Positions 14,304 through 44,242 are shown, numbered from the stretch's first letter. The stretch: DNA of 55,261 nt from an uncultured Clostridia bacterium (GCA_944388695.1 CALXJT010000004.1:1-55261), one strand, 5' to 3'. Numbers and translations: made by a program. Notes: generated from the letters alone by a model not told the origin.

Positions 14304-14433
14304 GCGAACATTAGGACACTCCATTTTGTTCGGATAAAAATAGAATTTTAATTTTTTCTATCCGAACAAAAAAGAGTGTCCCCAATGTTCTCCGAACAAA
14401 ATGGAGTGTCCCTAATGTTCGCCTAATGTTTGC
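14304..14433. repeat. Family-1 REP-like palindrome, copy A (right arm tandemly duplicated)
   Basis: gcgaacattaggacactccattttgttcgga (14304-14334); right arms at 14361-14390 and 14391-14422. Confidence 0.9.
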
Positions 14434-14479
14434 TCATAGTTTTTTCTTAGTTTATGTTCACAAAAAATTCACAAAAAAA

Positions 14480-14557
14480 TTAGCAAAAAGTATTGACAAC
14501 TGCTAAAAATGGATATAATATATATGAAGATTAGCAAACAACATACGCGAGTGCTAA
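14480..14557 (+). promoter_or_regulatory. hrcA promoter with two CIRCE-like operators
   Basis: TTAGCAaaa-N9-aacTGCTAA (14480-14506) over -35 TTGACA; TTAGCAaaC-N9-GAGTGCTAA (14531-14557). Confidence 0.8.
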
Positions 14558-14583
14558 AAAGTATTGCTAGAAGAGGTGAAAGA

Positions 14584-15594
14584 ATGTTGGATGATAGAAA
14601 GAAAAAAGTATTGCAGGCAATAGTAGAAGAATATGTAAATACTGCAGAACCTGTAAGTTCTACATCATTAACTAATCACGAAGATTTAAATTATAGTAGT
14701 GCAACCATACGTAACGAAATGGCTGATTTAGAAAAATCAGGATATCTTGAAAAGACACATACTTCTAGTGGAAGAATTCCTTCAGAAAAAGGTTATCGTT
14801 ACTATGTGGATGAATTATTACAAGATGATAATATAAGTATTGAAGAGATTAAATATATTAGTGACAAATTAGAAACTAAAGTTAATGAAATAGAAGAATT
14901 AACTAAAATTACAACAACAACGATTTCTGAAATAACGCATTATACTACAGTAGCTATAGGTCCAGGAACAGACAATCAATTGATACAAGAAATAAAGTTT
15001 GTGTTATTAGGACCAAGAATGTTAATGGCAATAATTTTAACAAATACAGGAATGGTAAAAGAAACAATAATTAAATTTGATGAAGATATAACAGAAAAAC
15101 AGGTAGAAACAATAAATTATATGTTCAATCAAAAATTAAAGGGTAAGCCATTAGATATAATAGATTTGCCATTAGAAAAATACTTAATAAATGAAATGAA
15201 ATATAGTGTTAAAGTAATAAAGCCAATTATTGAACAAATAAAAAAAGCTATAACAGAAGAAAGGCAAATTTATTTAGAGGGAACTAATAGATCATTTGAT
15301 TTACCAGAATTTAATAGTTTAGAAGTTGCGAAAAACTTTGTTAATATAATAGATGAAAAGGATTTAGTAGCAGATGTATTAAATTCAGGATTTGCTCAAG
15401 ATATTAATGTATATATAGGTGATGAAAATGAAAAAGAAGAACTTAAAGATTTTAGTGTAATCACTTTTAAACATAGAGTAGGTAATAAAGATTTGGGAAC
15501 AATAGGAATTATAGGACCAAAAAGAATGGATTATTCAAAAGTTATTTCGGTTATGAAGTACATAAGTAAAAAATTGAATGAAAAAAATATATAG
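14584..15594 (+). CDS. hrcA: Heat-inducible transcription repressor HrcA
   Basis: SSATIRNEMADLE, HTSSGRIPS, GIIGPKRMDY; ATG 14584 follows gaggtg. Confidence 0.95.
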   Translation: MLDDRKKKVLQAIVEEYVNTAEPVSSTSLTNHEDLNYSSATIRNEMADLEKSGYLEKTHTSSGRIPSEKGYRYYVDELLQDDNISIEEIKYISDKLETKVNEIEELTKITTTTISEITHYTTVAIGPGTDNQLIQEIKFVLLGPRMLMAIILTNTGMVKETIIKFDEDITEKQVETINYMFNQKLKGKPLDIIDLPLEKYLINEMKYSVKVIKPIIEQIKKAITEERQIYLEGTNRSFDLPEFNSLEVAKNFVNIIDEKDLVADVLNSGFAQDINVYIGDENEKEELKDFSVITFKHRVGNKDLGTIGIIGPKRMDYSKVISVMKYISKKLNEKNI

Positions 15595-15620
15595 TTATGC
15601 TATAAAGAATTATTAATAAT

Positions 15621-15698
15621 TGCAAGATAAAAGTATTGAATAGAAGTATTAATAAAAAATGCAAGATAGAAGTATTGAATAGAAGTATTAATAAAAAA
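15621..15698 (+). repeat. Tandem duplication of ~39 bp
   Basis: tgcaagata(a/g)aagtattgaatagaagtattaataaaaaa x2. Confidence 0.8.
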
Positions 15699-15842
15699 TG
15701 TTTAGTGATAATTTTATTGATAATATATAGTTTGGCAATAATATATAGTTAAGATAATATAGTTTAAATATTAAATAGATTAATTTAAGTGATTTCAAAA
15801 TATTATAAAATGAATATATAGTATAAAGAAAGAAGGTATAAG

Positions 15843-16373
15843 ATGTCAGATAAAAAAGATTTAAAAGAAAATGAAGTAACAGAAAACAATGAAGAGTTAA
15901 ATGAAACACAAAACGATGGAACAGCTAATGTAAAAGAACAATTAAAGCAAAAGGAACAAGAATTAGAAGATATCACAGATAGATATAAAAGAATATTAGC
16001 TGAATTTGAAAATCATAAGAAAAGAAGTCAAAAAGAAAGAGAAGGATTATATAATATGGTTTTATCAGATGTAGTATCAGCAATGCTTCCAATATTAGAT
16101 AATCTAGAAAATGCAGCAAAAGTAGAGACAAAAGATGAAGAATATAAAAAAGGAATAGAACTTGTACTTAAACAATTTCAAGATACATTAAAATCAAAAG
16201 GTGTAGAAGAAATAAAAGCATTAGGAGAGATATTTGACCCAGAGTTACATGAAGCAGTAAGTAGTGTTCAAGATGATACAAAAGGTGAAAAAGAAATTGT
16301 TCAAGAATATAGAAAAGGATATAAAATTGGTACAAAAGTAATTAGACATTCTATGGTAGTTGTAGCAAATTAA
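15843..16373 (+). CDS. grpE: Nucleotide exchange factor GrpE
   Basis: AEFENHKKR, FDPELHEAV, KGYKIG...IRHSMVVV. Confidence 0.95.
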   Translation: MSDKKDLKENEVTENNEELNETQNDGTANVKEQLKQKEQELEDITDRYKRILAEFENHKKRSQKEREGLYNMVLSDVVSAMLPILDNLENAAKVETKDEEYKKGIELVLKQFQDTLKSKGVEEIKALGEIFDPELHEAVSSVQDDTKGEKEIVQEYRKGYKIGTKVIRHSMVVVAN

Positions 16374-16591
16374 TAATAAATGTTAAAAAATTATTTTATA
16401 ATGAACGATGGTATTGGTATTAAGTAAAATAATATTGTAATATTGGTTAATACTTATACCATTAGTGATGTATAAAATATTTATAAAATAAATATCAATG
16501 ATAAAAAATATTTAACAAAAGAGAACAAATTAAGTAGAATTTTATATAACTTTATATAGTTATTAATTTTAAAAATATAAATTTAAATTAG

Positions 16592-18475
<1,884 letters not shown>

Positions 18476-18645
18476 CAGGGCAATTTTTTGAATTTATATT
18501 ATGTTTTATAATAATTTTATATGATTTTAAAAGATATAATAATTATTTTGTATACTGATTAGATTTAAAAAATTTAAAATTATGTTATGTGCAAATATTA
18601 AATCTATAGAGATCTTAACTAATATAATAGAAGTAATTTAGAAAG

Positions 18646-18677
18646 AGGTTGGACGCATAATTTTAAAATCCAACCTC
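18646..18677 (+). terminator. Hairpin between dnaK and dnaJ
   Basis: gaggttgga...tccaacctc; no clear U-tract on the + strand. Confidence 0.45.
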
Positions 18678-18868
18678 AAAATTTAATGTAAGAAAAATGA
18701 AATAAAGAATGAAATATTAGAAGAAGATTTGAGTATTTCAAAAATGCAGAGATGTAATTAGAATTATATTTAAAATTATTTTTAGAATTATATTTAGAAT
18801 TATATTTAAAATAAAATGAAGAAAATAAAGAAAAGTATAATAAAAAGACATTTTAATAGGAGGAAAAA

Positions 18869-20035
18869 ATGGCAGGAAAAAGAGATTATTATGAGGTTTT
18901 AGGTGTCAATAAAAATGCGACAGATGACGAATTAAAAAAAGCATATAGAAAACTAGCCAAAAAGTATCATCCTGATGCAAATCCTGATAATAAAGAAGAG
19001 GCAGAAGCAAAGTTTAAAGAAGTAAATGAAGCTTATGAAACTTTATCTGATCCTCAAAAAAGAAGAATGTATGACCAATTTGGACCTGATGGACCACAAG
19101 GATTTGGTGGTGGTGCAGGAGGACCATTTGGTGGTCAAGGAGGATATTATTCATATAGTAGTTCTGGTTTTGATGGATTTGGAGATTTTGGAGATTTAGG
19201 AGATATATTCTCATCATTTTTTGGTGGTGGTTTTGGAAGGCAAAGTTCTAGAAAACAAAGTGGTCCAAGAAAAGGTGCAGATTTGAATTTACATATGGAT
19301 ATTACTTTTGAAGAAGCGTATTTAGGAGTAGAAAAAGAGGTTGTAATTACAAGAAATGAAAAATGTTCAAATTGTAATGGAACGGGAGCAAAACCAGGAA
19401 CACATCCTATAAAATGTCCTGAATGTAAAGGAACTGGTCAAGTAAGACAAGTGCAAAATACAATATTAGGTCAAGTTCAAACTACAAGAACATGTAATAC
19501 CTGCCATGGAACAGGAGAGGTTATAAATGACCCTTGTGATGTGTGTAAAGGCAGAGGAACTGTGAGAAAGCAACCTAGAATAAAAGTAAAAATTCCAGCA
19601 GGAATAGATGACGGTCAAACTGTTGTATTAAGAGGTGAAGGTGACCCAGGAGAAAAAGGTGGACCTAATGGAGATTTATATATAACAATAAAAATAAAGA
19701 AACATAGTATTTTTACAAGAAAGGGCAATACAGTTTTATGTGATATTCCAATTACTATGACACAAGCAACTTTAGGAGCTGATTTGGAAATTCCTATGGT
19801 TGATGGAACAAAAGAAATTTATAAAATACCAGAAGGAACACAACCTGGAACAAAATTCACAATAAGAAATAAAGGATTTAAAGTAGTAAATTCTTCAGCT
19901 CAAGGAGATTTTGTATTTACAGTAAATGTACAAATTCCAAAACGTTTAACTAAAGAACAGAGAGATTTATTAGTTGAACTTGCAAAAACTATGAATGAAC
20001 AACCACCAGTTAAGAAAAGAGGATTTTTTGGCTAA
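18869..20035 (+). CDS. dnaJ: Chaperone DnaJ
   Basis: J-domain HPD, G/F region, four CxxCxGxG repeats. Confidence 0.98.
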
Positions 20036-20062
20036 AATTTGAATTCTAAATTTTTTAAAATA

Positions 20063-20088
20063 ACTTATTTTTTTACATTGCATATTAT
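20063..20088 (+). promoter_or_regulatory. Mother-cell (sigma-K/sigma-E-like) promoter
   Basis: AC-16 nt-CATATTAT. Confidence 0.4.
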
Positions 20089-20106
20089 TTACTAAAGGAG
20101 GTTTAT

Positions 20107-21354
20107 ATGAAGAAATATGCAAAAAAAATAAGTTTATTTTTTTCATTTATTGTAATGACATTACTATTTTTTAATTATTCGTATGCATTAACACCTATCT
20201 CCGAGCCAATTTATAATGGAATTGATGTAAGTAATTGGCAAGGATATATATCATATGATAGAGTGAAATCATCTGGAATAGATATAGTATATATAAAAGC
20301 AAGTCAGGGAACAACTTTTAAGGACCCATATATGGAATATAATTATTCTCAAGCCAAAGCGAATGGATTAAAAGTAGGATTTTATCATTTTCTAACAGCG
20401 ACTAATGAAGCAGAAGCACGAAGACAGGCTGAATTTTTTGTGTCTGTTATAGCTGGAAAAGAAGTTGATTGTAAGTTAGCAATGGATTTTGAACAGTTTA
20501 ATGGTGGTATTACAGTACCAGAAATACGAAGGATATCAAATGTGTTTTTAGAAACAGTTAAGCAATTATCTGGAAAAGAAGTTATAGTTTATAGTAATTT
20601 GAGTGATGCGCAAAATGTATTTGGTCAAGAAATAGCAAATAAATATCCACTATGGATTGCATATTATGGTTCAGAACAACGTTTGATTAATTCTAATTCT
20701 GCATGGAGTAGATGGAGTGGATGGCAATATACAAGCCAAGGAAGTGTTTCAGGAATTCAAGGATATGTAGATAGAAATATATTTACAAGTGATGTATTAT
20801 TAGGGCAAAGTACTGAAGTGCCAGGAAATTCAGGAGAAACGCCAAATGCAAATGATGATAATATACAGTATGTAGTTAAAAGAGGTGATACTTTAAGCCA
20901 AATTGCAAGGAGATATAATACTACTGTTACAAATTTAGTTAATTTAAATAATATAAGTAACCCTAATTTAATATATCCAGGTCAAGTGATTTATATTAGT
21001 AAAGCTGGTGTAGAATCAGAGCAGGAAACAAATGAAATGGGATGTGTAGTCTATACAGTAAAATCAGGTGATAATTTATCAAGTATTGCCAATAGATATG
21101 GAACGACAGTGCAAAAAATAATTAATTGTAATAAGATTTCAAATCCTAACTTAATATATCCAGGTCAAAAAATAAGAATACGAGTAACTACTGTAGCTGA
21201 TAATGATACCCAGATTCAATATGTTGTAAAAAGAGGAGATACTTTATGGAGTATTTCAAGAAGATATGGAGTAAGTATAGAAACTATAGTGAAAAATAAT
21301 AATATAACAAATAGAAATTTAATATATCCAGGTCAGACTTTATTAATAAATTAG
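20107..21354 (+). CDS. Secreted GH25 muramidase with three LysM domains
   Basis: Signal peptide, GIDVSNWQG, IKASQG, DFE; three YxVKxGD...NLIYPGQ LysM repeats. Confidence 0.9.
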   Translation: MKKYAKKISLFFSFIVMTLLFFNYSYALTPISEPIYNGIDVSNWQGYISYDRVKSSGIDIVYIKASQGTTFKDPYMEYNYSQAKANGLKVGFYHFLTATNEAEARRQAEFFVSVIAGKEVDCKLAMDFEQFNGGITVPEIRRISNVFLETVKQLSGKEVIVYSNLSDAQNVFGQEIANKYPLWIAYYGSEQRLINSNSAWSRWSGWQYTSQGSVSGIQGYVDRNIFTSDVLLGQSTEVPGNSGETPNANDDNIQYVVKRGDTLSQIARRYNTTVTNLVNLNNISNPNLIYPGQVIYISKAGVESEQETNEMGCVVYTVKSGDNLSSIANRYGTTVQKIINCNKISNPNLIYPGQKIRIRVTTVADNDTQIQYVVKRGDTLWSISRRYGVSIETIVKNNNITNRNLIYPGQTLLIN

Positions 21355-21372
21355 AAATATGATAATAAATTG

Positions 21373-21497
21373 AAAACTATTATGATTCAGATATAATAAA
21401 AAATTAAAAACTATTATGATTCGGATGTAATAAAAAATTAAAATCTATTATGGTTCAGATATAATGAAAAATTTAAAATCTGAATTATAATAGTTTT
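21373..21497. repeat. Three 34-bp direct repeats plus an inverted partial copy
   Basis: aaaactattatgattcagatataataaaaaatta x3, then atctgaattataatagtttt. Confidence 0.8.
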
Positions 21498-21677
21498 ATA
21501 TTTTATATATGATAATATATATTAATTGAAATATAAGTATCTGTACAATAATTACAAATATTGTAAATTTTACAAACTATAAAAGTTAAAAAAAATATTG
21601 ACAAAAAGTGTAATAAAATGTATTATTATGTTGAAAGTAATTTTAAATAATTACGCATAGAGAAAGGGGAGAATTTT

Positions 21678-22130: not shown

Positions 22131-22136
22131 AATAAA

Positions 22137-22180
22137 TGAACCATTGAGGTATTTATTATTTCATATGGTTCTTTTTTTTT
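22137..22180 (+). terminator. Intrinsic terminator
   Basis: gaaccat...atggttc followed by a long T run. Confidence 0.55.
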
Positions 22181-32332: not shown

Positions 32333-35053
32333 ATGAATATGAAAAAATTAGTATTAATTGATGGAAATAGTATTGCTAACAGAGCATTTTACGGAATTAT
32401 GGGAAGTAAAATGTTAATGACAAGTGACGGAAAATATACAAATGCAGTATATGGTTTTTTAGCAATAATGTTCAAATTATTAGATGACGAAAAACCAGAT
32501 TATATGGCAGTTGCATTTGACTTAAAGGCTCCAACAGCGAGACATAAACTATATGAAGGATATAAAGCAACAAGAAAAGGAATGCCTCAAGAATTAGCAG
32601 AGCAAATGCCAATAATAAAAGAAGTATTAAGAGCAATGAATATAGAAATAATAGAGAAGGAAGGATATGAAGCAGATGATGTTTTAGGAACATTATCACG
32701 TTTTGGAGAAAAAAATGGTTTAGAAGTTATTATTTTATCAGGAGATAGAGATACTTTTCAACTTGCGACAGATAATATAAGTATTCATATTCCAAGAACA
32801 AAAGGTGGAAAAACAGAAACAGAAATATATAATCGTGAAAAAATATTAGAAGTTTATGGAATTGAGCCAAAGCAATTAATAGAAGTAAAAGGATTACAAG
32901 GAGATACATCAGATAATATACCAGGAGTTCCAGGGATAGGAGAAAAAACAGCATTATCTTTAATAAAAGAATATGGTTCGATTGACAATTTATATAAAAA
33001 ATTAGAAAATGGTGAAGCTCAAATAAAAGGTAAACAAAAAGAAAAACTAGAAAGTAATAAAGATTTAGCAGAGCTTTCTAGAACATTGGGAACAATCAAT
33101 TTAGAAGTACCAATGGAAGAAGAAACATTAGAAAAATTAGAAGCTGAAGAGTGGAATAAACCAGAAGTTTTAAGATTGTTTAAAGAGTTAAAATTTAAAA
33201 GATACATAGATAGATTTCATTTATTAGATGAAGAGGAAGATGTATCATCAGAAAAAAATGAAAATATAGATGTATTATATAATGAAGGTAATTTATCAAT
33301 AGAGAAAATAAAAAAAGAGATTGAAAAAGATGGAGAGATGATATTTGATATTCAAACAGAAAAGGAAGAAAATCCAGAAAAAATAATCAAAGAAAAAATA
33401 GTAGGAATATCAATATATAGAAAAGAAAACAAAGAAACAAATTATTATTCATTTGAAAAAGAATTAGATTTTTTACAATTTAAAGAAATATTTGAGAATG
33501 ATAAAATAAAGAAAATAGGAATACATTTTAGTAAGACATATATTTTGTGTAAACAAATTGATATACAAATAAAAGGATTATATTTTGATGCTAAAATAGG
33601 AGCATATATTTTAGACCCTAATAATAATAAATTAGAAATAGAAAATTTAGCAGAAGAATACTTACATATATTTGTAGATGATTATATAAAAGAAGAAAAA
33701 CAAGAACAAATGAATTTATTTGATATGTCAGAAAATAAGGTCGATGATAGTAGAAAGAAAAAATCTCAATTTTATGCATATTTAATATATTCATTAGAAG
33801 AAAAAATAACTAAAGAATTAGAAAATATAAATGCAATAGAATTGTTCCAAGCAATTGATATGCCAACAGTAACGGTATTATCTGAAATGCAATGGAATGG
33901 AATGTATGCAAATCTTCAGAAATTAGAAGAATTTGGTGATGAATTAAAAAAGAATTTAGAGGAAAAAACTAAAAAGATATATGAACTTGCTGGAGAAGAA
34001 TTTAATATCAATTCTCCAAAACAATTAGGTGAAATATTATTTGATAAAATGAAATTACCAGTTATAAAGAAAACAAAAAGTGGATATTCTACAGATGTAG
34101 ATGTATTAGAAAAGCTAAAAAGTGAGCATCCTATAATTGAAGAAATTTTAGAATATAGACAATATACAAAATTAAATTCTACATATATAGAAGGATTAAA
34201 ACCATATATAAATCCAAAAACGAAAAGAATACATTCATTTTTTCATCAAACAATTACAGCTACTGGAAGAATAAGTTCAACAGAACCAAATTTACAAAAT
34301 ATACCTACTAGATTTGAATTAGGTAAAAAAGTAAGAAGAATATTTGAGCCAGAAAAAGGAAAAGTCTATATAGATGCAGATTACTCTCAAATAGAATTAA
34401 GAGTTTTAGCACATATGTCAGAAGATGTTCATATGGTAGAAGCATTTAAAAATAATGAAGATATCCATAAGCAAGCTGCTTCAAAAGTTTTTAAAACACC
34501 AATAGATGAGGTAACTAAAGAGCAAAGAAGTAGTGCAAAAGCTGTTAATTTTGGTATTGTATATGGAATTAGTGATTTTGGATTAGCAGAACAATTAGGA
34601 ATATCAAGAAAACAGGCTAAAAAATATATCGATGAATATTTGGAAGAATATTCAGGAATTCATCAATTTATGGAAAGTACAATAGAATCAGCAAAAGAAA
34701 AAGGATATGTAGAAACATTATTTCATAGAAGAAGATATATTCCAGAATTGACTTCTAAAAATTACATGGTAAGACAATTCGGAAGTCGTGCAGCAATGAA
34801 TACACCTATACAAGGGACAGCAGCAGATATAATGAAGATTGCAATGATAAAAGTATATAATGAGATGAAAGAACAAAATTTAAAAGCAAAAATAGTATTA
34901 CAAGTTCATGATGAAATGATGATAGAAGCACCTGAAAATGAAGTAGAGCAAGTAAAAGAAATACTAAAAAATTCAATGGAATCAGCAGCGAATTTAAAAG
35001 TACCATTGATTGCAGAAATTTCTGTGGCTAGTAATTGGTATGATTGTAAGTAA
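32333..35053 (+). CDS. polA: DNA polymerase I
   Basis: 5'-3' exonuclease (LIDGNS, EADD, GDTSDNIPGV), DYSQIELR, KAVNFG, QVHDE. Confidence 0.97.
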   Translation: MNMKKLVLIDGNSIANRAFYGIMGSKMLMTSDGKYTNAVYGFLAIMFKLLDDEKPDYMAVAFDLKAPTARHKLYEGYKATRKGMPQELAEQMPIIKEVLRAMNIEIIEKEGYEADDVLGTLSRFGEKNGLEVIILSGDRDTFQLATDNISIHIPRTKGGKTETEIYNREKILEVYGIEPKQLIEVKGLQGDTSDNIPGVPGIGEKTALSLIKEYGSIDNLYKKLENGEAQIKGKQKEKLESNKDLAELSRTLGTINLEVPMEEETLEKLEAEEWNKPEVLRLFKELKFKRYIDRFHLLDEEEDVSSEKNENIDVLYNEGNLSIEKIKKEIEKDGEMIFDIQTEKEENPEKIIKEKIVGISIYRKENKETNYYSFEKELDFLQFKEIFENDKIKKIGIHFSKTYILCKQIDIQIKGLYFDAKIGAYILDPNNNKLEIENLAEEYLHIFVDDYIKEEKQEQMNLFDMSENKVDDSRKKKSQFYAYLIYSLEEKITKELENINAIELFQAIDMPTVTVLSEMQWNGMYANLQKLEEFGDELKKNLEEKTKKIYELAGEEFNINSPKQLGEILFDKMKLPVIKKTKSGYSTDVDVLEKLKSEHPIIEEILEYRQYTKLNSTYIEGLKPYINPKTKRIHSFFHQTITATGRISSTEPNLQNIPTRFELGKKVRRIFEPEKGKVYIDADYSQIELRVLAHMSEDVHMVEAFKNNEDIHKQAASKVFKTPIDEVTKEQRSSAKAVNFGIVYGISDFGLAEQLGISRKQAKKYIDEYLEEYSGIHQFMESTIESAKEKGYVETLFHRRRYIPELTSKNYMVRQFGSRAAMNTPIQGTAADIMKIAMIKVYNEMKEQNLKAKIVLQVHDEMMIEAPENEVEQVKEILKNSMESAANLKVPLIAEISVASNWYDCK

Positions 35054-35197
35054 GATATTTTTTATATAGTATTTAGGGAAAATCAAATTGTAAAAAAATA
35101 AAAAAATTTTTTATATTGATTTTAGAATATTTGAAAATATAAATATAAAAAGGGGATAAGTATAATTATAAATATATTGGAGGAGAGAGTTTTATTG

Positions 35198-35767
35198 ATG
35201 CAAAAAGGACGTAGGATTTTTATAGTATTAATAATTATTCTGATAATGATTTTTATCTTATTCGGAGTATTAAAAATACATATAAGAATATTAGAAAAAA
35301 TGTATCCCAAAAATTATAGTAATTTTGTAACAATGTATGCAAAAGAATATCAAGTAGATGAAAATTTAATATATGCAATAATAAAGGCAGAAAGTAATTT
35401 TAATCCAGAAGCGGTTTCTGGTAAATCTGCTTATGGATTAATGCAAATAGTAGAAGAAACTGCTATAGATGTAGCAAGGAGAATAGAACCTAATTTAACA
35501 GCAGAAGAAGTAATGGATAATATATTTGATGTAGATTTTAATATACAATTGGGGACAAAATATGTTTCTATGCTATTAGAGCAATATGATGGAAATATAC
35601 CACTTGCACTTACTGCTTATAATGCGGGAATAGGAACAGTGAATAATTGGATAGAAAAAGGAGTTCTTCAGTCAGATGGCTCTGATATAGAGAATATACC
35701 ATATAAGGAGACAAATCAATATGTGAGAAAAATTTTGAGAGATTATGATATTTATCAGAATTTGTGA
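35198..35767 (+). CDS. SLT-domain lytic transglycosylase with N-terminal membrane anchor
   Basis: IKAESNF, GLMQ, AYNAG, ETNQYV. Confidence 0.9.
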   Translation: MQKGRRIFIVLIIILIMIFILFGVLKIHIRILEKMYPKNYSNFVTMYAKEYQVDENLIYAIIKAESNFNPEAVSGKSAYGLMQIVEETAIDVARRIEPNLTAEEVMDNIFDVDFNIQLGTKYVSMLLEQYDGNIPLALTAYNAGIGTVNNWIEKGVLQSDGSDIENIPYKETNQYVRKILRDYDIYQNL

Positions 35768-35773
35768 GCTAAC

Positions 35774-35879
35774 TTTGGTCGGATTTTGAGGCGAATTTTG
35801 GGGACACTCCATTTTGTTCGGAAAAAAATTTTACGAACAAAATGGAGTGTCCCCAAAATTCGACCAAAATCCGACTAAA
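35774..35879. repeat. Family-1 REP-like palindrome, copy B
   Basis: Perfect 29-bp arms at 35792-35820 and 35834-35862, plus outer stem gtcggattttg/caaaatccgac. Confidence 0.92.
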
Positions 35880-35993
35880 AATTGTCTCAAAATTTGAAAT
35901 TAGAGCTTTATTAAAAAAGTACTAGACAAATAGTCAAATATGATATAAAATTGAGGAAATAGAAAAATGTAATATAAAGGAGAATTAACAGTT

Positions 35994-37214
35994 ATGGTTG
36001 TAGAACAATTGATTTTTACAGTTATTGCATTTTTGCTCTTTGTTATTATGTTTTATCAAATGATAAAATATAATGATACAAGTTATGTTGTTATTTTTAT
36101 TTTACAGGCAATTGGAATAGCGTTAAATTTCTTTGAAGTTTTATTTGGAATCCAAATAACTCCTTTTTTTGTAATTTTAAAATATGTTTTTGCGATTTTA
36201 ATACCTGTTATAATAATTATAATGGATAAAAAGCATATACCATTAATAGAAGTTTTTAATGTAACTAAAGCAAGAATATGGATGAAATTTCATGTAAATA
36301 AGAGAGCAAAAGATAATTTAATTGATTTGCTTGACAAATATCCAGATAATTATAAAGCACATAAATTATTGGCACAAATATATGAACAAGAAGGTGGTAT
36401 GAGAAAAGCAATAGATGAGTATGTGCAAGCAATAGATGCAAATAAGCAGGATTATGATTCATATTATAAAGTAGCAGAATTATTAAATCAGTTAGAAAAG
36501 CCAGATGAAGCTTCAGAAATGCTTTTCAGGCTATTGTCAAAAAAACCAGAATATGAGCAAGCAACGGTTTTATTAGGCGATATTTTAATGAAAAAAGAAA
36601 TGTATAAAGAGGCTGTTAATGTATATCAAGATGCGTTAAAATATAATCCATTGAGTTATGATTTTAATTATTCATTAGGTATGGCATATACAATGTTAAA
36701 TGATTTCCAAAATGCAAAAATTTGTTATGAAAAGGCAGCGGAAATTAATTCATTATCATATAATTCTAAATATTCATTAGCTGAAATCGCATTAATATAT
36801 AAAGAAATAGAAGAAGCAGAAAAATATTTTATGGAAGTAGTAGATACAGAAGATTTAGCTGCGGATGCATATTATGAATTAGCTAAAATTTCTCTAATGA
36901 AAGGAAATAAAGATATGGCTATAAAATATGCAAATACTGCAATAGATTTGGATTCAAAGAAAATAGTTCCAAAAATTAAGAAAGATCCAATTTTTATACC
37001 AGTAATTGCTAGAATTCCTATACCATTTAATTTAGAAGGAAATAAAAAAGCAGGTAACTTGACAGAAATTGAACTTAAGACCAAGGAACATTTGGAAGAA
37101 ATGTTTGAAATTACAAGACATTTAAGCTATCAAGATATAGAGATGTTGAATTATCAAATGAGAAAGAAAGAACATGACGAAAAAGAGAATATTGATAGAG
37201 AAAAAGAAGAGTAA
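35994..37214 (+). CDS. Membrane-anchored tetratricopeptide-repeat protein
   Basis: 3 N-terminal TM helices followed by multiple TPR-like repeats. Confidence 0.75.
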   Translation: MVVEQLIFTVIAFLLFVIMFYQMIKYNDTSYVVIFILQAIGIALNFFEVLFGIQITPFFVILKYVFAILIPVIIIIMDKKHIPLIEVFNVTKARIWMKFHVNKRAKDNLIDLLDKYPDNYKAHKLLAQIYEQEGGMRKAIDEYVQAIDANKQDYDSYYKVAELLNQLEKPDEASEMLFRLLSKKPEYEQATVLLGDILMKKEMYKEAVNVYQDALKYNPLSYDFNYSLGMAYTMLNDFQNAKICYEKAAEINSLSYNSKYSLAEIALIYKEIEEAEKYFMEVVDTEDLAADAYYELAKISLMKGNKDMAIKYANTAIDLDSKKIVPKIKKDPIFIPVIARIPIPFNLEGNKKAGNLTEIELKTKEHLEEMFEITRHLSYQDIEMLNYQMRKKEHDEKENIDREKEE

Positions 37215-37404
37215 AAATGATACTTCAAAAATTGAAATTTAAGTAAATTATCTTTAGGAAAAAAGAGAGTGAAGTGCTATAAATATTATAGAGATATAGA
37301 AAACAATAAATCTAAATCATTAAAGATAGTTATAAAAAGCTTATTTAAAAATTTTCGTAATAAATAATAACTTTTTTTCATATATTTTTCTAGGAGGAAT
37401 TTAT

Positions 37405-38242
37405 ATGAAGAAAAGTTTTTTTATAATAGGGCGGAGATTTAAGAATGATAAAATTGGCAAATATGCTTGAAAAAGATGGGAACATAGTATATACTTATGG
37501 AATAGAAGAGGCAGAAAAAGAAGCAATTGATAAAGAGGTATTTGAGAGGTCAGATATTATTATTTGTCCTACTCCACTTTCTAAAGACGGCAATACAATT
37601 TTTATGCCTTATAGCCATAAAGAAATAACAATTCAAGAGGTATTGAGTGAGTCAAGAGGAAAAATATTTATTGCAGGTAATATACCAAAAAAATATATTG
37701 ATATAGCAAAAGAAAATGATGTAAATATTATAGATATTATGGAGTCAGAAGATTTAGTTATATATAATACAATTGCAACCGCAGAAGGAACAATAAATAT
37801 TATGATAGAAGATACAGATAAAATTTTACAAGGACAAAAAGTATTAATATTAGGTTTTGGTAGAGTTGCAAAAACACTAGCAATGAAGCTTAAAGGACTT
37901 CAGATGGAAGTTACTTGTGTGGCAAGGAAAGATAAAGATATTGCATGGATAGAAACCTATGGTTATAGAGCTCTATATTTATCTTTTATAGAAAACGAGT
38001 TGAAAAATTACGACTTTATAATAAATACAATACCATATCAAATATTAAAAGAAGAGCAATTGTCAAAAGTGAAAAAAGAAACACTTTTAATAGATTTAGC
38101 ATCTAGTCCAGGTGGAATTTGTCAAGATGATGCTAAAAAATTAGGGTTAAAATCTATTTGGGCATTAGCCTTGCCTGGAAAAATAGCACCAACATCTAGT
38201 GCGAAATTTATAAGAAAAGTTATATATTCAAAGATACTTTAA
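37405..38242 (+). CDS. dpaA: Dipicolinate synthase subunit A; N-terminus out of frame by +1 at codons 9-10 (programmed frameshift, pseudogene or sequence error)
   Basis: SD aggagg then ATG 37405 gives MKKSFFIIG; the +1 frame continues GDLRMIKLA; the body has NTIATAEG, GFGRVA, IDLASSPGG, ALPGKIAP. Confidence 0.8.
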
Positions 38243-38289
38243 AGAATTGTTAGGATAAAATATGTAACAAAAGAAGGGAGAAATGAGAA

Positions 38290-39081
38290 ATGGCAGAAAT
38301 TTTACAAGCATTAGTATTAGGAATAGTACAGGGATTAACAGAATTATTACCAATATCTAGTTCAGCACATTTAAATTTAATACCATGGATATTTAATTGG
38401 GATATACCAGAAAGTTTTGACGTAGCATTGCATTTTGGAACACTTCTTGCAATAGCATTATTCTTCTTTAAAGATTGGATTGAATTAATAAAAGGTGGAT
38501 ATAATCAAGTTGTAAAAAAGAAGAAATCATTTGAAGGTAAAATGTTTTGGTATATAGTAATAGCAACAATTCCTGGAGGAATAATAGGTTTTATATTAGA
38601 CCATTTTGTAGGAGATTCTTTAGGAAATATGCCATTATTAATAGCAATAGCCTTAATTGTAATGGGAATAATACTTTATGTAGTAGATAAAAAAGCACCA
38701 AATAAAACAAAATATGAAGATATGAATTTTAAACAAACATTTTTAATAGGATTATCACAAGCTTTAGCATTTATACCAGGAGTGTCACGCTCTGGAATTA
38801 CAATGACAACAGGTAGATTAATGGGAGTTGATAGAGCATCAACTGCAAAATATTCTTTTATGTTATCAGCACCTATTGTATTAGGAGCAACACTTTATAA
38901 GCTTAAAGATTTTGACTTTGGAATTCCATTTTTAGTAGGTGTTTTATCTAGCTTTGTTGTTGGATTATTGGTAATTAAATTTTTATTACAATATTTGCAA
39001 AAAGGTAGCTTTAAAGGTTTTGCAATTTATAGAGTTGTAGTAGGAATATTAGTGATTGGTTTATATATTATAAGATTGTAG
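38290..39081 (+). CDS. uppP: Undecaprenyl-diphosphatase
   Basis: QGLTELLPISSSAH, HFGT, PGVSRSG. Confidence 0.95.
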   Translation: MAEILQALVLGIVQGLTELLPISSSAHLNLIPWIFNWDIPESFDVALHFGTLLAIALFFFKDWIELIKGGYNQVVKKKKSFEGKMFWYIVIATIPGGIIGFILDHFVGDSLGNMPLLIAIALIVMGIILYVVDKKAPNKTKYEDMNFKQTFLIGLSQALAFIPGVSRSGITMTTGRLMGVDRASTAKYSFMLSAPIVLGATLYKLKDFDFGIPFLVGVLSSFVVGLLVIKFLLQYLQKGSFKGFAIYRVVVGILVIGLYIIRL

Positions 39082-39090
39082 TTAATGAAT

Positions 39091-39173
39091 AAAAGACGAA
39101 CGTTGGGGACACTCCATTTTGTTCGGGAAAAATTTTTCCGAACAAAATGGCGTGTCCCTAACGTTCGCCTTTT
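39091..39173. repeat. Family-1 REP-like palindrome, copy C
   Basis: cgaacgttggggacactccattttgttcgg-gaaaaattttt-ccgaacaaaatggcgtgtccctaacgttcg. Confidence 0.92.
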
Positions 39174-39241
39174 CCTCTTGAATTTGCCTAAAAAATATGA
39201 TAAAATAGGTAAAATTCTAGAAAAGACGAGGTCGAATATAT

Positions 39242-41122
39242 ATGTTAGAAAAAGTAAATTCACCAGAAGATTTAAAAAAATTAAATATAAATCAAAAAAC
39301 AGAATTAGCGCAAGACATAAGAGAATATATATTAAAAATAGTTTCAGAAAATGGAGGACATTTAGCATCAAATTTAGGAGTAGTGGAATTAACAATAGCA
39401 TTACACAGTGTTTTTAATGTGCCAGAAGATAAAATTGTATGGGATGTAGGGCATCAAACTTATGTACATAAAATTTTAACAGGAAGAAAAGAAGCATTAA
39501 AAACATTAAGAAAATTAGATGGTATTGCAGGTTTTCCTAAAATAAAAGAATCTGAAACAGATTGCTTTAATACAGGACATAGCAGTACCTCTATTTCTCT
39601 AGCACTTGGAATGGCAAGAGCGAGAGATATACAAGGAAAGAATAATATGGTTGTGGCAGTTATTGGTGATGGAGCATTAACAGGAGGAATGGCAATAGAG
39701 GCATTAAATGATGCAGGTTTTAGTCATTCAAAAATGATAGTAGTTCTTAATGATAACGAGATGAGTATTTCAAAAAATGTTGGTGGACTTAATATGTTTT
39801 TAAGTAAATTACGCACTAAAAAATTATATACAAAGTCTAATATATCTGCTAAAAAATTAATTTTAAAAATACCTGTAATTGGAAAACCAGTTGTAAAAAT
39901 AATACAAAGATTAAAAAGAAGTATTAAACAATTAATTATACCTAAAATGTTTTTTGAAGATATAGGATTTACATATTTAGGACCTGTAGATGGTCATAAT
40001 ATACAGGAACTTGAGAATATATTAAGATTAAGTGAGCAAGTCGAAGGACCTGTTTTAGTACATGTTTTAACTAAAAAAGGAAAAGGATATAAAATAGCTG
40101 AAGAAAATCCAGATAAATTCCATGCTACTTCACCATTTGATGTAGAAACAGGTGAATTAAAAAGTAAAAAGAAAAAGGATTATTCAAAAGTTTTTGGAGA
40201 TAAATTAGTAGAAATTGCAAAAAGAAATCCTCAAGTTGTTGCTATAACTGCATCTATGAAAGATGGAACAGGGCTTACAGAATTTCAAAAAGAATTTCCA
40301 GATAGATTTTTTGATATAGGAATAGCAGAGCAACATGCAGTGGGGCTAGCGGCAGGAATGGCAAAAGCAGGATTAATACCTGTAGTTCCAATATATTCAT
40401 CTTTCTATCAAAGAGCTTATGATCAAGTTATACATGATGTTGCAATTCAAAATTTACCAGTTGTTTTATGTGTTGATAGAGCAGGACTAGTTGGTGCTGA
40501 TGGAGAAACACATCAAGGTTTATTAGATATGGCATTTTTTAGATTAGTTCCAAATTTAACAATAATGGCTCCAAAAGATTTTAAAGAATTAGAGGATATG
40601 TTAGAGTTTGCAATAGACTTAAAAAAACCAGTAGTAATTCGTTATCCTAGAGGAGGAGAAGAAAGAACTTTTGAATTGAATGATGAAAAATATCAAACTA
40701 TACAAGAAGGAAAAGCAGAAATTTTATCAGAAGGAAATGATATTACAATAGTAGCAATTGGAAAGATGGTAGCAAGAGCTAAAAATATTCAAGAGAAATT
40801 ATTGGAAGACAACATACATGCAGAGTTAATAAATGCTAGATTTTTAAAACCATTAGATGAAGATATAATTATAAATTCAATATCTAAAACTAAAAAAGTA
40901 GTTACTATAGAAGATGGAACTTTAATAGATGGACTTGCTACAGCAGTTGAAGAATGTATTATAGAAAAAAAATTGGAGAACATAAATATTAAATCATATG
41001 GATATCCTGATAAATATATTCCTCATGGTTCAGTTTCAGAATTAGAAAAAATATATGGTTTGGATGAAGAAAAAATTTATGATGATATAAAGAATTTATG
41101 TCTTAAGGAAGAAAGTCTTTAA
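39242..41122 (+). CDS. dxs: 1-deoxy-D-xylulose-5-phosphate synthase
   Basis: GGHLASNLG, DVGHQ, GHSSTS, GDGA...LNDN, GIAEQHA, IRYPRG. Confidence 0.97.
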   Translation: MLEKVNSPEDLKKLNINQKTELAQDIREYILKIVSENGGHLASNLGVVELTIALHSVFNVPEDKIVWDVGHQTYVHKILTGRKEALKTLRKLDGIAGFPKIKESETDCFNTGHSSTSISLALGMARARDIQGKNNMVVAVIGDGALTGGMAIEALNDAGFSHSKMIVVLNDNEMSISKNVGGLNMFLSKLRTKKLYTKSNISAKKLILKIPVIGKPVVKIIQRLKRSIKQLIIPKMFFEDIGFTYLGPVDGHNIQELENILRLSEQVEGPVLVHVLTKKGKGYKIAEENPDKFHATSPFDVETGELKSKKKKDYSKVFGDKLVEIAKRNPQVVAITASMKDGTGLTEFQKEFPDRFFDIGIAEQHAVGLAAGMAKAGLIPVVPIYSSFYQRAYDQVIHDVAIQNLPVVLCVDRAGLVGADGETHQGLLDMAFFRLVPNLTIMAPKDFKELEDMLEFAIDLKKPVVIRYPRGGEERTFELNDEKYQTIQEGKAEILSEGNDITIVAIGKMVARAKNIQEKLLEDNIHAELINARFLKPLDEDIIINSISKTKKVVTIEDGTLIDGLATAVEECIIEKKLENINIKSYGYPDKYIPHGSVSELEKIYGLDEEKIYDDIKNLCLKEESL

Positions 41123-41197
41123 AAAGAAATATTAAGCAGTGGTAGACGGAAGATTCGTTACTAAAGAAAGAATTTTAGAAGACTATTATGTGAAGGG

Positions 41198-42001
41198 ATG
41201 AGATTAAGTATGGATAAAATAAAGCTATTAGAAGATTATAAGAAGCAAGAAGATAAAATGTTATTATCTCAAATTTTAGATAAGATGGAAATGAGCGAAA
41301 GAAAGGGTTCAGTTGAAGTTACTGATTTTTTAGATATGTATCAGAATGCTTTAGTTGAAAAATTCTTGAAAAAGATAAAGTTTGATAATGTTAAGTTATG
41401 GGGAGGATATGAAGAGGCAGAAAGAAAAATATGTATATTTTCCCAAGAAAATTTAGAGAACACAGATTATTCAAAAGAATTACAAATAATTAGAATTAAA
41501 TTACAAGAATCAGATAAAGGCAAATATTCTCATAGAAATTATTTGGGAGGAATTGTAAAAGTAGGTATAAAGAGAGAAAAAGTAGGAGATATCATAGTAT
41601 TTGATGATGGAGCTGATATTATAGTAAAAAATGAAATTTCAGAAGGATTAGTAAAGGAATTAAAAGGATTAAATAGATTTGAAAATGCTGAATTTCAAAT
41701 TTTAGATATTTCAGAATTAAGAAGAAAAGAGGTTCAAAAAGAAGAAATTAGTATAATTGTACCATCATTAAGGTTAGACAATATTGTATCAGATTTAGCT
41801 AGAACTTCAAGAAATAAAGCGGTAGAAATACTTAAACAAGAAAGAGTTTTTGTTAATGGTCAAAATGAGACAAAACCTTCTAAAAATGTTAAATTACAAG
41901 ATGTTATAACTATTAGAGGGAAAGGAAGATTTGTTATTAAGGAGTTTTCTGGAACAACAAGAAGTGGGAGAACAGTGGTTATTGTAGAGAAATTTGTTTA
42001 G
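41198..42001 (+). CDS. YlmH/Sll1252-family S4 RNA-binding protein
   Basis: TDFL, GGYEEAER, HRNYLG, SLRLD, IRGKGRF. Confidence 0.88.
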   Translation: MRLSMDKIKLLEDYKKQEDKMLLSQILDKMEMSERKGSVEVTDFLDMYQNALVEKFLKKIKFDNVKLWGGYEEAERKICIFSQENLENTDYSKELQIIRIKLQESDKGKYSHRNYLGGIVKVGIKREKVGDIIVFDDGADIIVKNEISEGLVKELKGLNRFENAEFQILDISELRRKEVQKEEISIIVPSLRLDNIVSDLARTSRNKAVEILKQERVFVNGQNETKPSKNVKLQDVITIRGKGRFVIKEFSGTTRSGRTVVIVEKFV

Positions 42002-42145
42002 ATGAGAAAACAAGAAGATAAATTTGTTAGTTTAGATAAAGTTATGAAGATAAACTTGAGTAGAGTTAGGTGAAAAATGTAAAAGTAAAATAGTATGAGT
42101 CTTAAAAATTCTTCTTCATTTTATTAAAAATCATTTTATCAAAAA

Positions 42146-42208
42146 ATTGAATGTCCATACTGGGAGATGATTTTAAAAGTTTTCATAACCCATTATGGAC
42201 ATTTAATT
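42146..42208. terminator. Long hairpin between convergent ylmH-like and tsaB-rimI genes
   Basis: aattgaatgtccata...tatggacatttaatt. Confidence 0.55.
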
Positions 42209-42294
42209 ATTATATTTATATTATAAATCAAATATCATAAATCAAATTTTTTTCTTATGCTTCTATCTGCTGACATTTAATTAATATATTATAT

Positions 42295-43404
42295 TTATAT
42301 ATTTAAAGTCATCAAAATTGCGTCTTCACTATTGTTATAATAATTTTTTCTTCTACCATCTTCGATAAAATTGAATTTCTTATAAAGTGAAATTGCAGGA
42401 AAATTATTTTCATTAACTTCTAGATGAATTTTTTCAATATTTAAACTTTGAGCATAGTTAATTAATTTTTCTAAAAGTAATTTTCCAATACCTTGTCTCC
42501 TAAAGTTATTTTTTATAGCTATATTCATAATTTCAGTTTCATCTAAAATTGTTTTTATTCCACCAAATCCAACTATTTCTTTATCAATCTTTGCAACAAA
42601 AAATGTAGAATTAGTAGAGTTTAATTCATCACTTAATTGGTTCAAATTCCAAAATTCATCAAATAAAGAAATATCTAAATCTTTTAAATCAGAAATATCC
42701 ATTTTATCAAAAGATAATGTTTTATTTTCCAATTGTCTCTGTGCTTGAGGCTTTTTTAGATATAGAGGTAAAAGTTCCTCATCGCTATTATTTTGATATT
42801 TTTCAATTCCTGCTAATCCCAAAGTATAAGTATCAAGATTTGATGGGTTATCTGGTATTAGACTATAGTTCTTAATCGTATTTTTAATACTTTCAGAAAA
42901 TATGTTGATATTTTCTCCAATAAAAGTGATATTAGAATCTGAATATTTATATTTTAGAAGTTCAAGGCAATTTTCTATGCTATCAGCTTTTGAATCACTA
43001 ATAACTGTAAAAGAGTTGTTATCTTTTTTGTATAATGCGTAATAGCAATTATTATTTTTACAGTCAATTAAACTACAAATTATTCCATTTGATGTAATTT
43101 TTCTAGCATAACATTCAAGAGAACTGATGCCAATAGTTTTTATATTTAAACTATCAGAAAATGCTTTTGCAGTAGCTACCCCTATTCGTATACCAGTAAA
43201 TGAGCCAGGACCAATATCACATACTATTAAATTGATATTTTTTATAGATATATTATTTTTAGTTAATATTTCTTGAATTGTTGGCATTAAAATTTCTGAA
43301 TGAGTTAATCCCTCATTTTTTTCTATTTTATCTATTAAATTTGTGTTTTCTAGTAATGCAACACTACAAATTTTGCTAGATGTTTCTATACAAAGAGTTT
43401 TCAT
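42295..43404 (-). CDS. tsaB: Fused TsaB (t6A pathway) and RimI-like N-acetyltransferase
   Basis: IETSS, GPGSFTGIRIG, PLYLK; then GNAT RRQGIG, LEV...N..AI.LY, GRRKNYY...EDA. Confidence 0.88.
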   Translation of the reverse strand: MKTLCIETSSKICSVALLENTNLIDKIEKNEGLTHSEILMPTIQEILTKNNISIKNINLIVCDIGPGSFTGIRIGVATAKAFSDSLNIKTIGISSLECYARKITSNGIICSLIDCKNNNCYYALYKKDNNSFTVISDSKADSIENCLELLKYKYSDSNITFIGENINIFSESIKNTIKNYSLIPDNPSNLDTYTLGLAGIEKYQNNSDEELLPLYLKKPQAQRQLENKTLSFDKMDISDLKDLDISLFDEFWNLNQLSDELNSTNSTFFVAKIDKEIVGFGGIKTILDETEIMNIAIKNNFRRQGIGKLLLEKLINYAQSLNIEKIHLEVNENNFPAISLYKKFNFIEDGRRKNYYNNSEDAILMTLNI

Positions 43405-43553
43405 TGTTAATATTCCTTATTATGTATTTAGGTTTTTATTAATATGGATTAGATAAGGAAGTACCTATAAACCTTTATGTTAGTTTGGATTATTGCATAA
43501 AATATATCTATTATAAATTATATTGAGATATATTATAAGATTTTTTAAATAAC

Positions 43554-44027
43554 TTATAAATTTTTAATAAGTGATTCAAGAATAAATTCAGAACGAGTTC
43601 CATTTGTTTCAAAATTTAAAATTCTTGAATTTTCAGAATCTTTATCCTTTGAAAAAGTGATTTTTAGTATATCATTTGGTAAAGCGTCTTGAATTATTTC
43701 ACCCCATTCAATAATAGAAATTCCTTTTTCAAAATATTCTTCTCCACCAATTTCATAAAATTCAGAAGAATCTTCTAATCTATATACATCAAAGTGAAAA
43801 ATGGTTGTGCTATCATTTTTATATTCATTTACAATTGTAAAAGTTGGGCTAGAGATTTCATCTTCTAAATTAAAATATGATAAAATTCCTTCTGTAAATT
43901 TTGTTTTTCCACAACCTAATTCACCAGTTAAGACAATAATATCTTTTTCTTTCAAAAAACTTGCTAGTTTTCTTGCAATTATTTTTGTTTCATTTTCTGA
44001 ATTTGTTTTTAAATGATAATTTTTCAT
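43554..44027 (-). CDS. tsaE: tRNA threonylcarbamoyladenosine ATPase TsaE
   Basis: GELGCGKT, SPTF, HFDVYRL, IEW. Confidence 0.95.
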   Translation of the reverse strand: MKNYHLKTNSENETKIIARKLASFLKEKDIIVLTGELGCGKTKFTEGILSYFNLEDEISSPTFTIVNEYKNDSTTIFHFDVYRLEDSSEFYEIGGEEYFEKGISIIEWGEIIQDALPNDILKITFSKDKDSENSRILNFETNGTRSEFILESLIKNL

Positions 44028-44085
44028 GTTTTATCCTTTATTATAAATTTAGATTTTTAAGAAAATCTATAAACTTTATGCACAT

Positions 44086-44114
44086 ATTATAATACATATA
44101 TTAGGATATTTCAA
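44086..44114 (-). promoter_or_regulatory. Sigma-A promoter of tsaE; -35 overlaps the base of the family-2 hairpin
   Basis: Minus strand TTGAAA (44114-44109), 17 nt, TATAAT (44091-44086). Confidence 0.6.
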
Positions 44115-44168
44115 GTAGAGGAAGTGGTCAATTGGGGACGGGTCCTGATTGACCATTTCCTCCACTTG
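44112..44168. repeat. Family-2 palindrome, left copy
   Basis: caagt-a-gaggaagtggtcaattgggga-cggg-tcctgattgaccatttcctc-c-acttg. Confidence 0.85.
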
Positions 44169-44170
44169 TA

Positions 44171-44242
44171 AGCGAACAATAGGGACACTCAATTTTGTTC
44201 GGAAAATTTTCCGAACAAAATCGAGTGTCCCTATTGTTCGTT
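44171..44242. repeat. Family-1 REP-like palindrome, copy D
   Basis: cgaacaatagggacactcaattttgttcgg-aaaatttt-ccgaacaaaatcgagtgtccctattgttcg. Confidence 0.92.

Follow-up and report, generated by a model that had tools for sequence, protein, structure and literature searches.

The window examined is a stretch of 55,261 nucleotides from an uncultured Clostridia bacterium (assembly GCA_944388695.1, CALXJT010000004.1:1-55261, referred to as contig C4), in which four long hairpins (copies A to D) are built from units of a short palindromic repeat, here called fam1. Three units of a second palindrome family (fam2) also lie in the window. The genome assembly comprises 1,595,078 bp in 86 contigs (94.8% complete, 26.5% GC). 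The features of the window, with neighbouring open reading frames (ORFs), are as follows.

3299-3332, minus strand: weak degenerate single unit, CCGAACAAAAAGGAGTGGAAATTCGG (nhmmer E = 0.016).
13443-14288: ORF (Na_Ca_ex) upstream of copy A; stop TGA at 14286-14288, 16 nt to CGAAC; hrcA lies downstream of the copy.
14305-14421 (CGAAC...GTTCG limits), plus strand: copy A, a composite of the type '+--' with a nested extra unit, in which a '+' unit starting at 14305 is followed by a long palindromic spacer, then by a degenerate '-' unit (nested, to about 14392) and lastly by a '-' unit to 14421.
14422-14433: further degenerate 11-mer at the tail of copy A.
35177-35767: ORF with SLT domain upstream of copy B; stop TGA at 35765-35767, 24 nt to CGAAC and about 9 nt to the first outer 11-mer.
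35774-35879, plus strand: copy B, an inverted doublet with its core at 35792-35862, pairing being extended to 35774-35879 by extra 11-mers (TCGGATTTTGA / ACCAAAATCCGA); CGAATTTTGG variant in each arm.
38290-39081: BacA/UppP ORF upstream of copy C; stop TAG at 39079-39081, 15 nt away; dxs lies downstream of the copy.
39097-39167, plus strand: copy C, an inverted doublet centred on a short A5T5; rare CGAACG variant in each arm.
44126-44154, plus strand: fam2 unit, GGTCAATTGGGGACGGGTCCTGATTGACC.
44173-44240, minus strand: copy D, an inverted doublet; CGAACAATAG in each arm.
44315-44905, minus strand: lipoprotein-like ORF without Pfam match; copy D lies 73-74 nt 3' of its stop.
45005-45033, minus strand: fam2 unit with degenerate left half.
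45076-45104, minus strand: fam2 unit (GGTTAATTTGGACCCGTCCCCAATTGACC on the plus strand).

All four hairpins were recovered at the positions given in the original prediction, share a core and lie 3' of a gene; that copies A to C start close to a stop codon agrees with the distances listed above, the value for copy B depending on whether CGAAC or the outer 11-mer is taken as the start. The outer arms had been quoted correctly in every copy (A cgaacatta/taatgttcg, B cgaattttg/caaaattcg, C cgaacgtt/aacgttcg, D cgaacaata/tattgttcg), and the description of the hairpins as GC-rich holds relative to a genome at 26.5% GC, and not otherwise. The 20-mer GGACACTCCATTTTGTTCGG was matched nine times in the window at up to three mismatches, compared with 0.02 in shuffled sequence, and none of 100 shuffles reached nine. 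RNA folding of the four copies gave -54 to -73 kcal/mol (z -11.7 to -14.9; 0/200 shuffles equally stable), and DNA folding of the two copies tested gave z values of -10.9 and -15.1. No Rfam family was matched in the window at gathering thresholds, and copy C gave no blastn match among plasmids and phages. The genes beside the copies are ordinary chromosomal ones, those downstream including hrcA, dxs and tsaE, and the window is free of Y1 transposase genes, as had been said of a mobiliser. The fam2 units and copy D bracket the lipoprotein-like ORF.

Throughout the genome the fam1 unit was found to be 29 nt long and to consist of CGAACA, 17 nt (TTGGGGACACTCCATTT, beginning with TTGGGGAC) and TGTTCG. 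This imperfect palindrome has a CGAACA/TGTTCG stem of 6 bp, to which folding adds an inner stem of 5 bp; its consensus is (G)CGAACATTGG-GGACACTCCATTTTGTTCG(G), the outer 11-mer positions and three core positions being variable. When the 19-mer core was searched with one free position and up to two mismatches, 89 matches were obtained in the genome and none for the reversed control. An nhmmer profile built from 92 units returned 102 units (E up to 1) at 63 loci, so that the dispersal proposed from the window extends to the whole genome: copies are spread over at least 35 contigs beside housekeeping genes (hrcA, dxs, uppP, tsaE), and 53 of the 63 loci are free of ORFs of at least 70 amino acids, the other ten overlapping mostly short doubtful ORFs (71-89 amino acids).

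The prevailing arrangement is the inverted doublet. Neighbouring units form 26 head-to-head pairs, 12 tandem pairs and no tail-to-tail pairs, and the loci comprise 29 singlets and the 26 head-to-head pairs, plus tandem and mixed arrays. A doublet (66-90 nt) contains two head-to-head units around a palindromic A/T centre, which is either a short A/T palindrome or a longer homologous GGATAGAAAAA..TTTTTCTATCC and which remains palindromic almost to the midpoint. The palindrome has a sharp end at (G)CGAAC in most of 25 doublets, and inspection of the element borders for flanking direct repeats, target duplications or a conserved target word yielded none. Many units are preceded, on the stop-codon side, by additional 11-mers of the GCGAACATTGG type, which are often degenerate; the outer 11-mers recur about every 11 bp. 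Doublet units show 1.95 mismatches to the master (11/42 exact), compared with 4.67 for singlets (1/27 exact; Mann-Whitney p = 0.0024). One doublet, at C9:27925-28045, is palindromic for about 25 nt past the element ends (AATTTGATGCTGAAAAAGG / CTCTTTTTCGGCATTAAATT). It may have been inserted into a hairpin that was already present, or flank may have been included in an inverted duplication that gave rise to it.

Covariation of the arms within each copy, noted before in the four hairpins, was borne out genome-wide. The arms of 25 doublets differ by a mean of 1.76 mismatches over 29 positions, compared with 3.90 (standard deviation 0.19) after permutation of the right arms, and a value as low was reached in none of 10,000 permutations; tandem neighbours differ at 4.5 positions. 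Some variants are confined to a single doublet, where both arms carry them (AACGG at C8:23138, CGAACG at C4:39097 and CGAATATT at C19:6046). Either structural selection or arm-to-arm copying may stand behind this: the doublet would have to fold in order to be moved, or mismatches would be corrected from one arm to the other. Template switching is a known mechanism, and quasi-palindrome template switching of this kind, by in-place fold-back copying or arm-to-arm correction, could produce covariation by mutation alone, with no need for structural selection. This explanation concerns the cause of covariation and leaves the identity of the family untouched; we consider it tentative and give it clearly less than an even chance. 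It draws on a palindrome that continues across the midpoint (A(n)T(n) or GGATAGAAAAA..TTTTTCTATCC) and leaves almost no true loop, on the variants confined to both arms of the three single doublets, on the palindrome extended beyond the element at C9:27950 and on the occurrence of identical arm variants with both loop classes. Against this, the homologous spacer of the long-loop doublets implies that doublets were copied whole, and the sharp palindrome end at (G)CGAAC is unlike an in-place duplication that includes the flanks; moreover, covariation in REPINs is attributed to hairpin constraint in the sections consulted of PMC3116915. Compensatory changes across the hairpin and better conservation of doublets than of singlets are both described for REPINs there, so that covariation in hairpin arms is an already published REPIN property and not a new one.

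The lineage-specific character of the family, which had been surmised, was confirmed by counting the 14-mer core (up to one mismatch) in 151 genomes of the genus: 66 matches were obtained here and 84 in a sister species (G054), compared with at most three in each of the other 149. In a species-representative collection the exact 19-mer gave two single matches elsewhere (an Enterococcus record and a Chitinophagales metagenome-assembled genome record), which were taken as chance, and among metagenome contigs it was found in one, 100% identical to C18:1189-1967 of this genome. The sister genome is 80% complete, shows 84-87% identity to the present one in flanking genes and has a related abundant family (111 matches at up to three mismatches). 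In four of its loci (L025, L055, L066, L068), TGAACG..CGTTCA is nested inside CGGAYR..YRTCCG to form one long palindrome, an arrangement absent from the present genome.

Insertion sites were compared between the two species. From 21 sister loci, 11 could be placed by both of their flanks on a single contig of the present genome; in ten cases no family unit is present there, and one element is shared. With 63 loci in the genome and 10/11 comparable sites differing in occupancy, the family does not consist of a few copies at sites fixed across relatives. At C2:13378-13510, between an ORF end and the next ribosome-binding site, a fam2 doublet stands where the sister species (L061, C9) has a fam1-like doublet, which suggests site re-use or a shared target. 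The site of copy B is empty in four further relatives (G050, G103, G088, G080) and holds 11-mer-like debris in G054; that of copy C is occupied by an ordinary terminator hairpin in G088 and G080 and by nothing in G103; synteny at the site of copy A is lost in the relatives examined. For comparison within the species, contigs from four runs (X3, X7, X13, X16) were aligned to positions 33000-47000. Contigs of other runs span copies C and D with no gap; inside copy B, contigs break. A joint from 44157 to 45075, present in all four runs, skips 917 nt between two fam2 units; its shorter side spans 30 letters, and it is probably a repeat k-mer effect and not a deletion allele. Three of the four runs show a 19-nt insertion after 35046 relative to the window. 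The species is recorded in 20 run entries from nine studies, X19 and X20 being metatranscriptomes, and the runs containing the window stretch are labelled mostly as chicken gut metagenomes.

The genome contains one intact Y1_Tnp gene, on contig C32. Its product (264 amino acids; Pfam PF01797, E = 2.7e-13) has HIH and Y---NP motifs and a weak C-terminal helix-turn-helix (HTH) match; it scored 58 bits with the NCBIfam REP_Tyr_transpos model, below the 80-bit cut-off, and gave no phmmer match among PDB sequences at E up to 0.01. In a protein atlas only IS200-like clusters were confirmed, with Bacillota as the commonest phylum. The family fam2 has 24 matches genome-wide, and TTGGGGAC is common to fam2 and fam1. 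A gene on contig C57 (2578-2881) was considered as a mobiliser and rejected: it is a broken IS200-like tnpA with internal TAG, TAA and TGA stops and has no adjacent family units. It has end hairpins in the IS200/IS605 style, unrelated to fam1 or fam2. The proposal that the family represents IS200/IS605 ends was likewise dropped, this broken gene being the only IS200-like tnpA and not being flanked by family units.

The search for a Y1 or RAYT gene flanked by copies of the repeat, unsuccessful in the present genome, succeeded in the sister species. Its Y1 gene (C88) encodes 245 amino acids with HAH and Y---NP motifs, is 30% identical to the C32 protein and is flanked in inverted orientation by fam1-core units, CGGACAATAGGGACACTCCATTTCATCCG and CGGATGATAGGGACAGGCCGTTTTGTCCG (L041, 1253(+) and 2601(-)). 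The association recurs across the genus. Homologues of the C32 protein were found in 46 of 61 sampled genomes, the present one included, with one to five matches each; in five relatives the flanks of the Y1 genes carry species-specific palindromes, in which a stem of 6 bp encloses about 17 nt starting with T(T)GGGGAC, and the layout of fam1 (CGAACA + TTGGGGACACTCCATTT + TGTTCG) is exactly that of these palindromes. Of 101 genomes sampled for homologues of the sister Y1 protein (E up to 1e-40), 24 contain them, again with units made of a stem and TT(G/A)GGGAC in the flanks. At 19 Y1 loci of the genus, 20 of 58 flanking GGGAC sites possess a stem of at least 5/6 bp at the positions equivalent to fam1, compared with 3.3 expected by permutation and a maximum of 10 in 2000 permutations. 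The stem sequences differ between species, which amounts to covariation favouring the small hairpin. All nine Y1 proteins scanned pass the Y1_Tnp cut-off, and six of the nine have weak C-terminal HTH matches below the Pfam cut-offs.

Two published descriptions bear on the class of these enzymes. In the sections used of Di Nocera et al. 2013 (PMC3733652), TIRYT/TIRtron elements are RAYT-like genes flanked by terminal inverted repeats with GGGGWSAS; in those of Quentin et al. 2018 (PMC6006769), TIRYTs are equated with TnpA-Y1 subclass 2.1, the proteins of which are long, have an HTH at the C-terminus and carry the Y---NP motif of class 2. Judged by motifs, length and domain layout, the Y1 proteins found here would fit the TIRYT / subclass 2.1 type. 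We therefore read the hairpins, with a probability of about 0.75, as a REPIN-like non-autonomous family of mobile single-strand hairpins belonging to a TIRYT / TnpA-Y1 subclass 2.1 system. The doublet would be the replicating unit, singlets and loose GCGAACATTGG-like 11-mers would be products of decay or processing, and the hairpin of the unit, together with its GGGGACAC tag, would be what the cognate enzyme recognises in single-stranded DNA. Recognition of single-stranded DNA would, in this proposal, lead to a bias towards leading-strand sequence. The original prediction of a REP/REPIN-like element tied to an HUH Y1 enzyme is upheld as regards the doublets and the flanks of the sister Y1 gene; as regards class it is to be amended, since the type would be that of TIRYTs and not of the canonical GTAG-REP RAYT.

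Several observations weigh against this reading. Searching PF01797 over the genome returned only the C32 gene and the broken IS200-like gene, and no cognate Y1 gene for fam1; the C32 gene is itself flanked, in inverted orientation, by fam2 (GGTCAATTGGGGACGGGTCCCAATTGACC) and not by fam1 (L001 960-1010 and 1970-2105), and the sister Y1 protein matched only the C32 protein (30% identity) in the present genome. The locus syntenic with the sister Y1 gene (C6:8289-8686) has no Y1 gene and measures about 400 nt, compared with the 1.4-kb interval in G054. The gene-absence claim is itself limited by the fragmented assembly (86 contigs, 94.8% complete), and gene context was obtained with a greedy ORF caller (1393 ORFs of at least 70 amino acids, 84% of the genome), which is a heuristic. 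No two doublets are identical: even the closest pairs show 3 differences over about 70 positions, most of them within the A/T centre. Moreover, no insertion polymorphism, excision or empty-site joint was seen within the species at 33000-47000 in the four runs. The fam1 unit consensus has neither the GTAG nor the CGTC tag of REPIN-RAYT systems, and the action of TIRYTs on such repeats is given as a proposal, not a demonstration, in the sections used of PMC3733652.

The missing enzyme may be explained in three ways. Loss of the cognate Y1 gene from this genome, leaving the family orphaned and either frozen or decaying, is the explanation we lean towards, with odds somewhat better than even. At C6:8283-8330, the position of the left repeat in G054, the present genome carries degenerate 11-mers (CGAACATTCAG CGAACATCAG CAACTGTTGG CAAACATTAG) without a core, and this run looks like the scar of a lost gene cassette, as judged from sequence. 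Cross-mobilisation by the paralogous Y1 gene on C32 is a rather unlikely alternative, and that the family has a cognate gene of its own which was left unassembled is less likely still.

The second main feature of the family is its position relative to genes. Of the 63 loci, 41 have co-directional genes on either side, 7 have convergent and 3 divergent ones; 2 are situated at a contig end, and 10 overlap an ORF. At 34 of the 41 co-directional loci the element is closer to the stop than to the next start (p = 2.5e-5; medians 20 and 119 nt, respectively), and with a 50-nt zone before the next start excluded the count is 29/41 (p = 0.012). Of the 17 single-orientation arrays located up to 40 nt past a stop, all are sense (Fisher p = 2e-5 relative to the remaining 20 arrays). 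The pattern is similar in the sister species, where 17 of the 21 loci are close to the end of an ORF and the sense orientation is shown by 7 of 8 single-orientation arrays. At C18:1439 and C18:10674 the upstream ORF terminates at the TAG contained in CATTAGGG, and in G054 (L072, L061) the TGA of TGAACG serves this purpose; a unit that supplies the stop codon implies that the last few codons of the ORF were replaced by the insertion. Contig GC skew reaches about ±0.3 and correlates with the gene-strand fraction at 0.97, most genes being leading-strand, and 26 of 37 single-orientation arrays lie on leading-strand sequence.

Given insertions within about 0-25 nt of the stop and in sense orientation, the elements are almost certainly transcribed as very stable 3' hairpins. 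On the strength of position and orientation only, they may also serve as a 3' mRNA structure, as had been proposed. A further step would be that host use of the RNA hairpin, in mRNA protection or through an effect on translation termination, keeps the family, and that selection at the RNA level sets position and orientation. The preference for the stop side and for the sense strand, its recurrence in the sister species, the stability of the RNA hairpins and the ordinary terminator at the site of copy C in relatives are all in keeping with such a role, which we nevertheless regard as doubtful. No enrichment of a U-tract was seen after the hairpin (on average 3.96 T among the next 10 nt in 28 sense contexts, compared with a genome T frequency of 0.387), so that the hairpins as a class are not canonical terminators; G.U and A.C mismatches on the sense strand (19 to 11) do not differ significantly and are confounded by the GC skew of about 0.3; and transcription and replication direction are inseparable because all near-stop genes are leading-strand.

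Near-stop placement might instead be explained entirely by insertion into pre-existing terminator hairpins, that is, by structure-directed targeting. The flanks of copy C (AAAAGA...CCTTTTCC) resemble the stem of the G080 terminator at the same site (GAAAAGGA...TCCTTTTC), the doublet at C9:27950 lies inside a longer palindrome, and the fam2 doublet at C2:13378-13510 occupies the site of a fam1-like doublet in G054. Palindromic flanks are, however, present in only 2-3 of 25 doublets, and the unit-supplied stops (C18:1439, C18:10674 and the TGAACG of G054) imply insertion in the end of an ORF and not in a terminator loop, so that this explanation is judged improbable. The outer 11-mers with their period of about 11 bp, and the imperfect palindromes directly after ORFs with AAC...GTT ends, which are features of attC sites, bring to mind another kind of system, for instance integron attC-like recombination sites or operators at which an HTH protein would bind in 11-bp phase. 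Such a reading is very improbable in view of the dispersal over at least 35 contigs beside housekeeping genes, unlike cassette arrays, and of the units that flank Y1 genes in relatives; the attC reading was rejected on the dispersed distribution, no search for an integron integrase having been made.

To return to the mobile hairpin family and its Y1 enzymes, a bolder form of this reading holds that the HTH-bearing Y1 enzymes of the genus direct hairpins in fixed orientation to the 3' ends of ORFs, at times with the hairpin providing the stop codon, placement not being the outcome of a filter after insertion, and that the orphan family is kept by a paralogue reading the shared TTGGGGAC tag. We consider it unlikely. 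If it were true, the genus, in which more than 150 species carry one to five paralogues each and every paralogue has its own repeat, would serve as a natural experiment on how enzyme and repeat co-evolve. Independently of it, the contrast between sister species (gene present in one, empty syntenic locus in the other) allows repeat decay after enzyme loss to be tested, and the stop-adjacent sense placement, found independently in both species, offers a handle on site choice and on host use of 3' RNA.

Among known structures, the fam1 hairpins resemble Rho-independent terminators in forming a stable hairpin a few nucleotides after the stop, and a real terminator stands at the site of copy C in relatives; they differ in showing no U-tract enrichment and in their far longer stems (30-45 bp). 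Work on REP sequences (repetitive extragenic palindromes) close to stop codons has reportedly been carried out by Liang, Rudd and Deutscher. In E. coli, bacterial interspersed mosaic elements (BIMEs) are mosaics of Y and Z REP types. The two unit types nested in the palindromes of the sister species recall such alternating REP types; the present genome differs in having essentially one unit type plus loose 11-mers. What marks a canonical REP, a short high-copy extragenic imperfect palindrome, is found in fam1 (102 units; 53/63 loci extragenic), as are the predominance and better conservation of inverted doublets that mark a REPIN (26 head-to-head pairs and 0 tail-to-tail; 1.95 and 4.67 mismatches, respectively). 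A RAYT flanked by the same repeat was not found in its own genome.

With the REPIN-RAYT system (Bertels and Rainey 2011, PMC3116915; TnpA-REP of E. coli), as far as it is described in the sections consulted, fam1 shares inverted doublets that form long hairpins and have diverged less than singlets, changes in one arm that are compensated in the other, repeats that flank a Y1 gene (here that of the sister species), lineage-specific families and the lack of target duplication. It differs in that the enzyme would belong to another Y1 subclass, with an HTH tail, and that the doublet is palindromic through its centre; in addition, excision intermediates were present in population reads in the published case, according to the same sections, and none were seen here.

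The likeness to TIRYT/TIRtron elements lies in the enzymes (long Y1/HUH proteins of 245-290 amino acids with Y---NP and an HTH-like C-terminal tail), in the inverted repeats with GGGGWSAS (GGGGACAC in fam1, GGGGACAG in relatives), which in the case of fam1 flank the gene of the sister species, and in the dispersal of the flanking repeat as singles, dimers and groups. TIRYT-associated repeats are likewise described as moderately abundant and as occurring singly, as dimers or in groups in the sections used of PMC3733652. The master motif of fam1, GGGGACAC, fits GGGGWSAS, and GGGGACGG of fam2 matches it at 7/8 positions. The present family differs in that every repeat forms a small hairpin on its own, with a stem of 6 bp and a loop of 17 nt, in its number and setting (about 100 copies in a 1.6-Mb genome at 26.5% GC, probably Bacillota), in having no cognate gene in its own genome and in its strict sense-oriented placement beside stop codons. 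In the large survey of PMC6006769, in the sections used, no REP-like sequences were identified beside subclass 2.1 genes; here a dispersed hairpin family of about 100 copies is linked to this HTH-bearing Y1 class. On the fit of GGGGACAC to GGGGWSAS and the published TIRYT layout, fam1 is filed as a TIRYT-type repeat family working like a REPIN, and not as a canonical GTAG REP.

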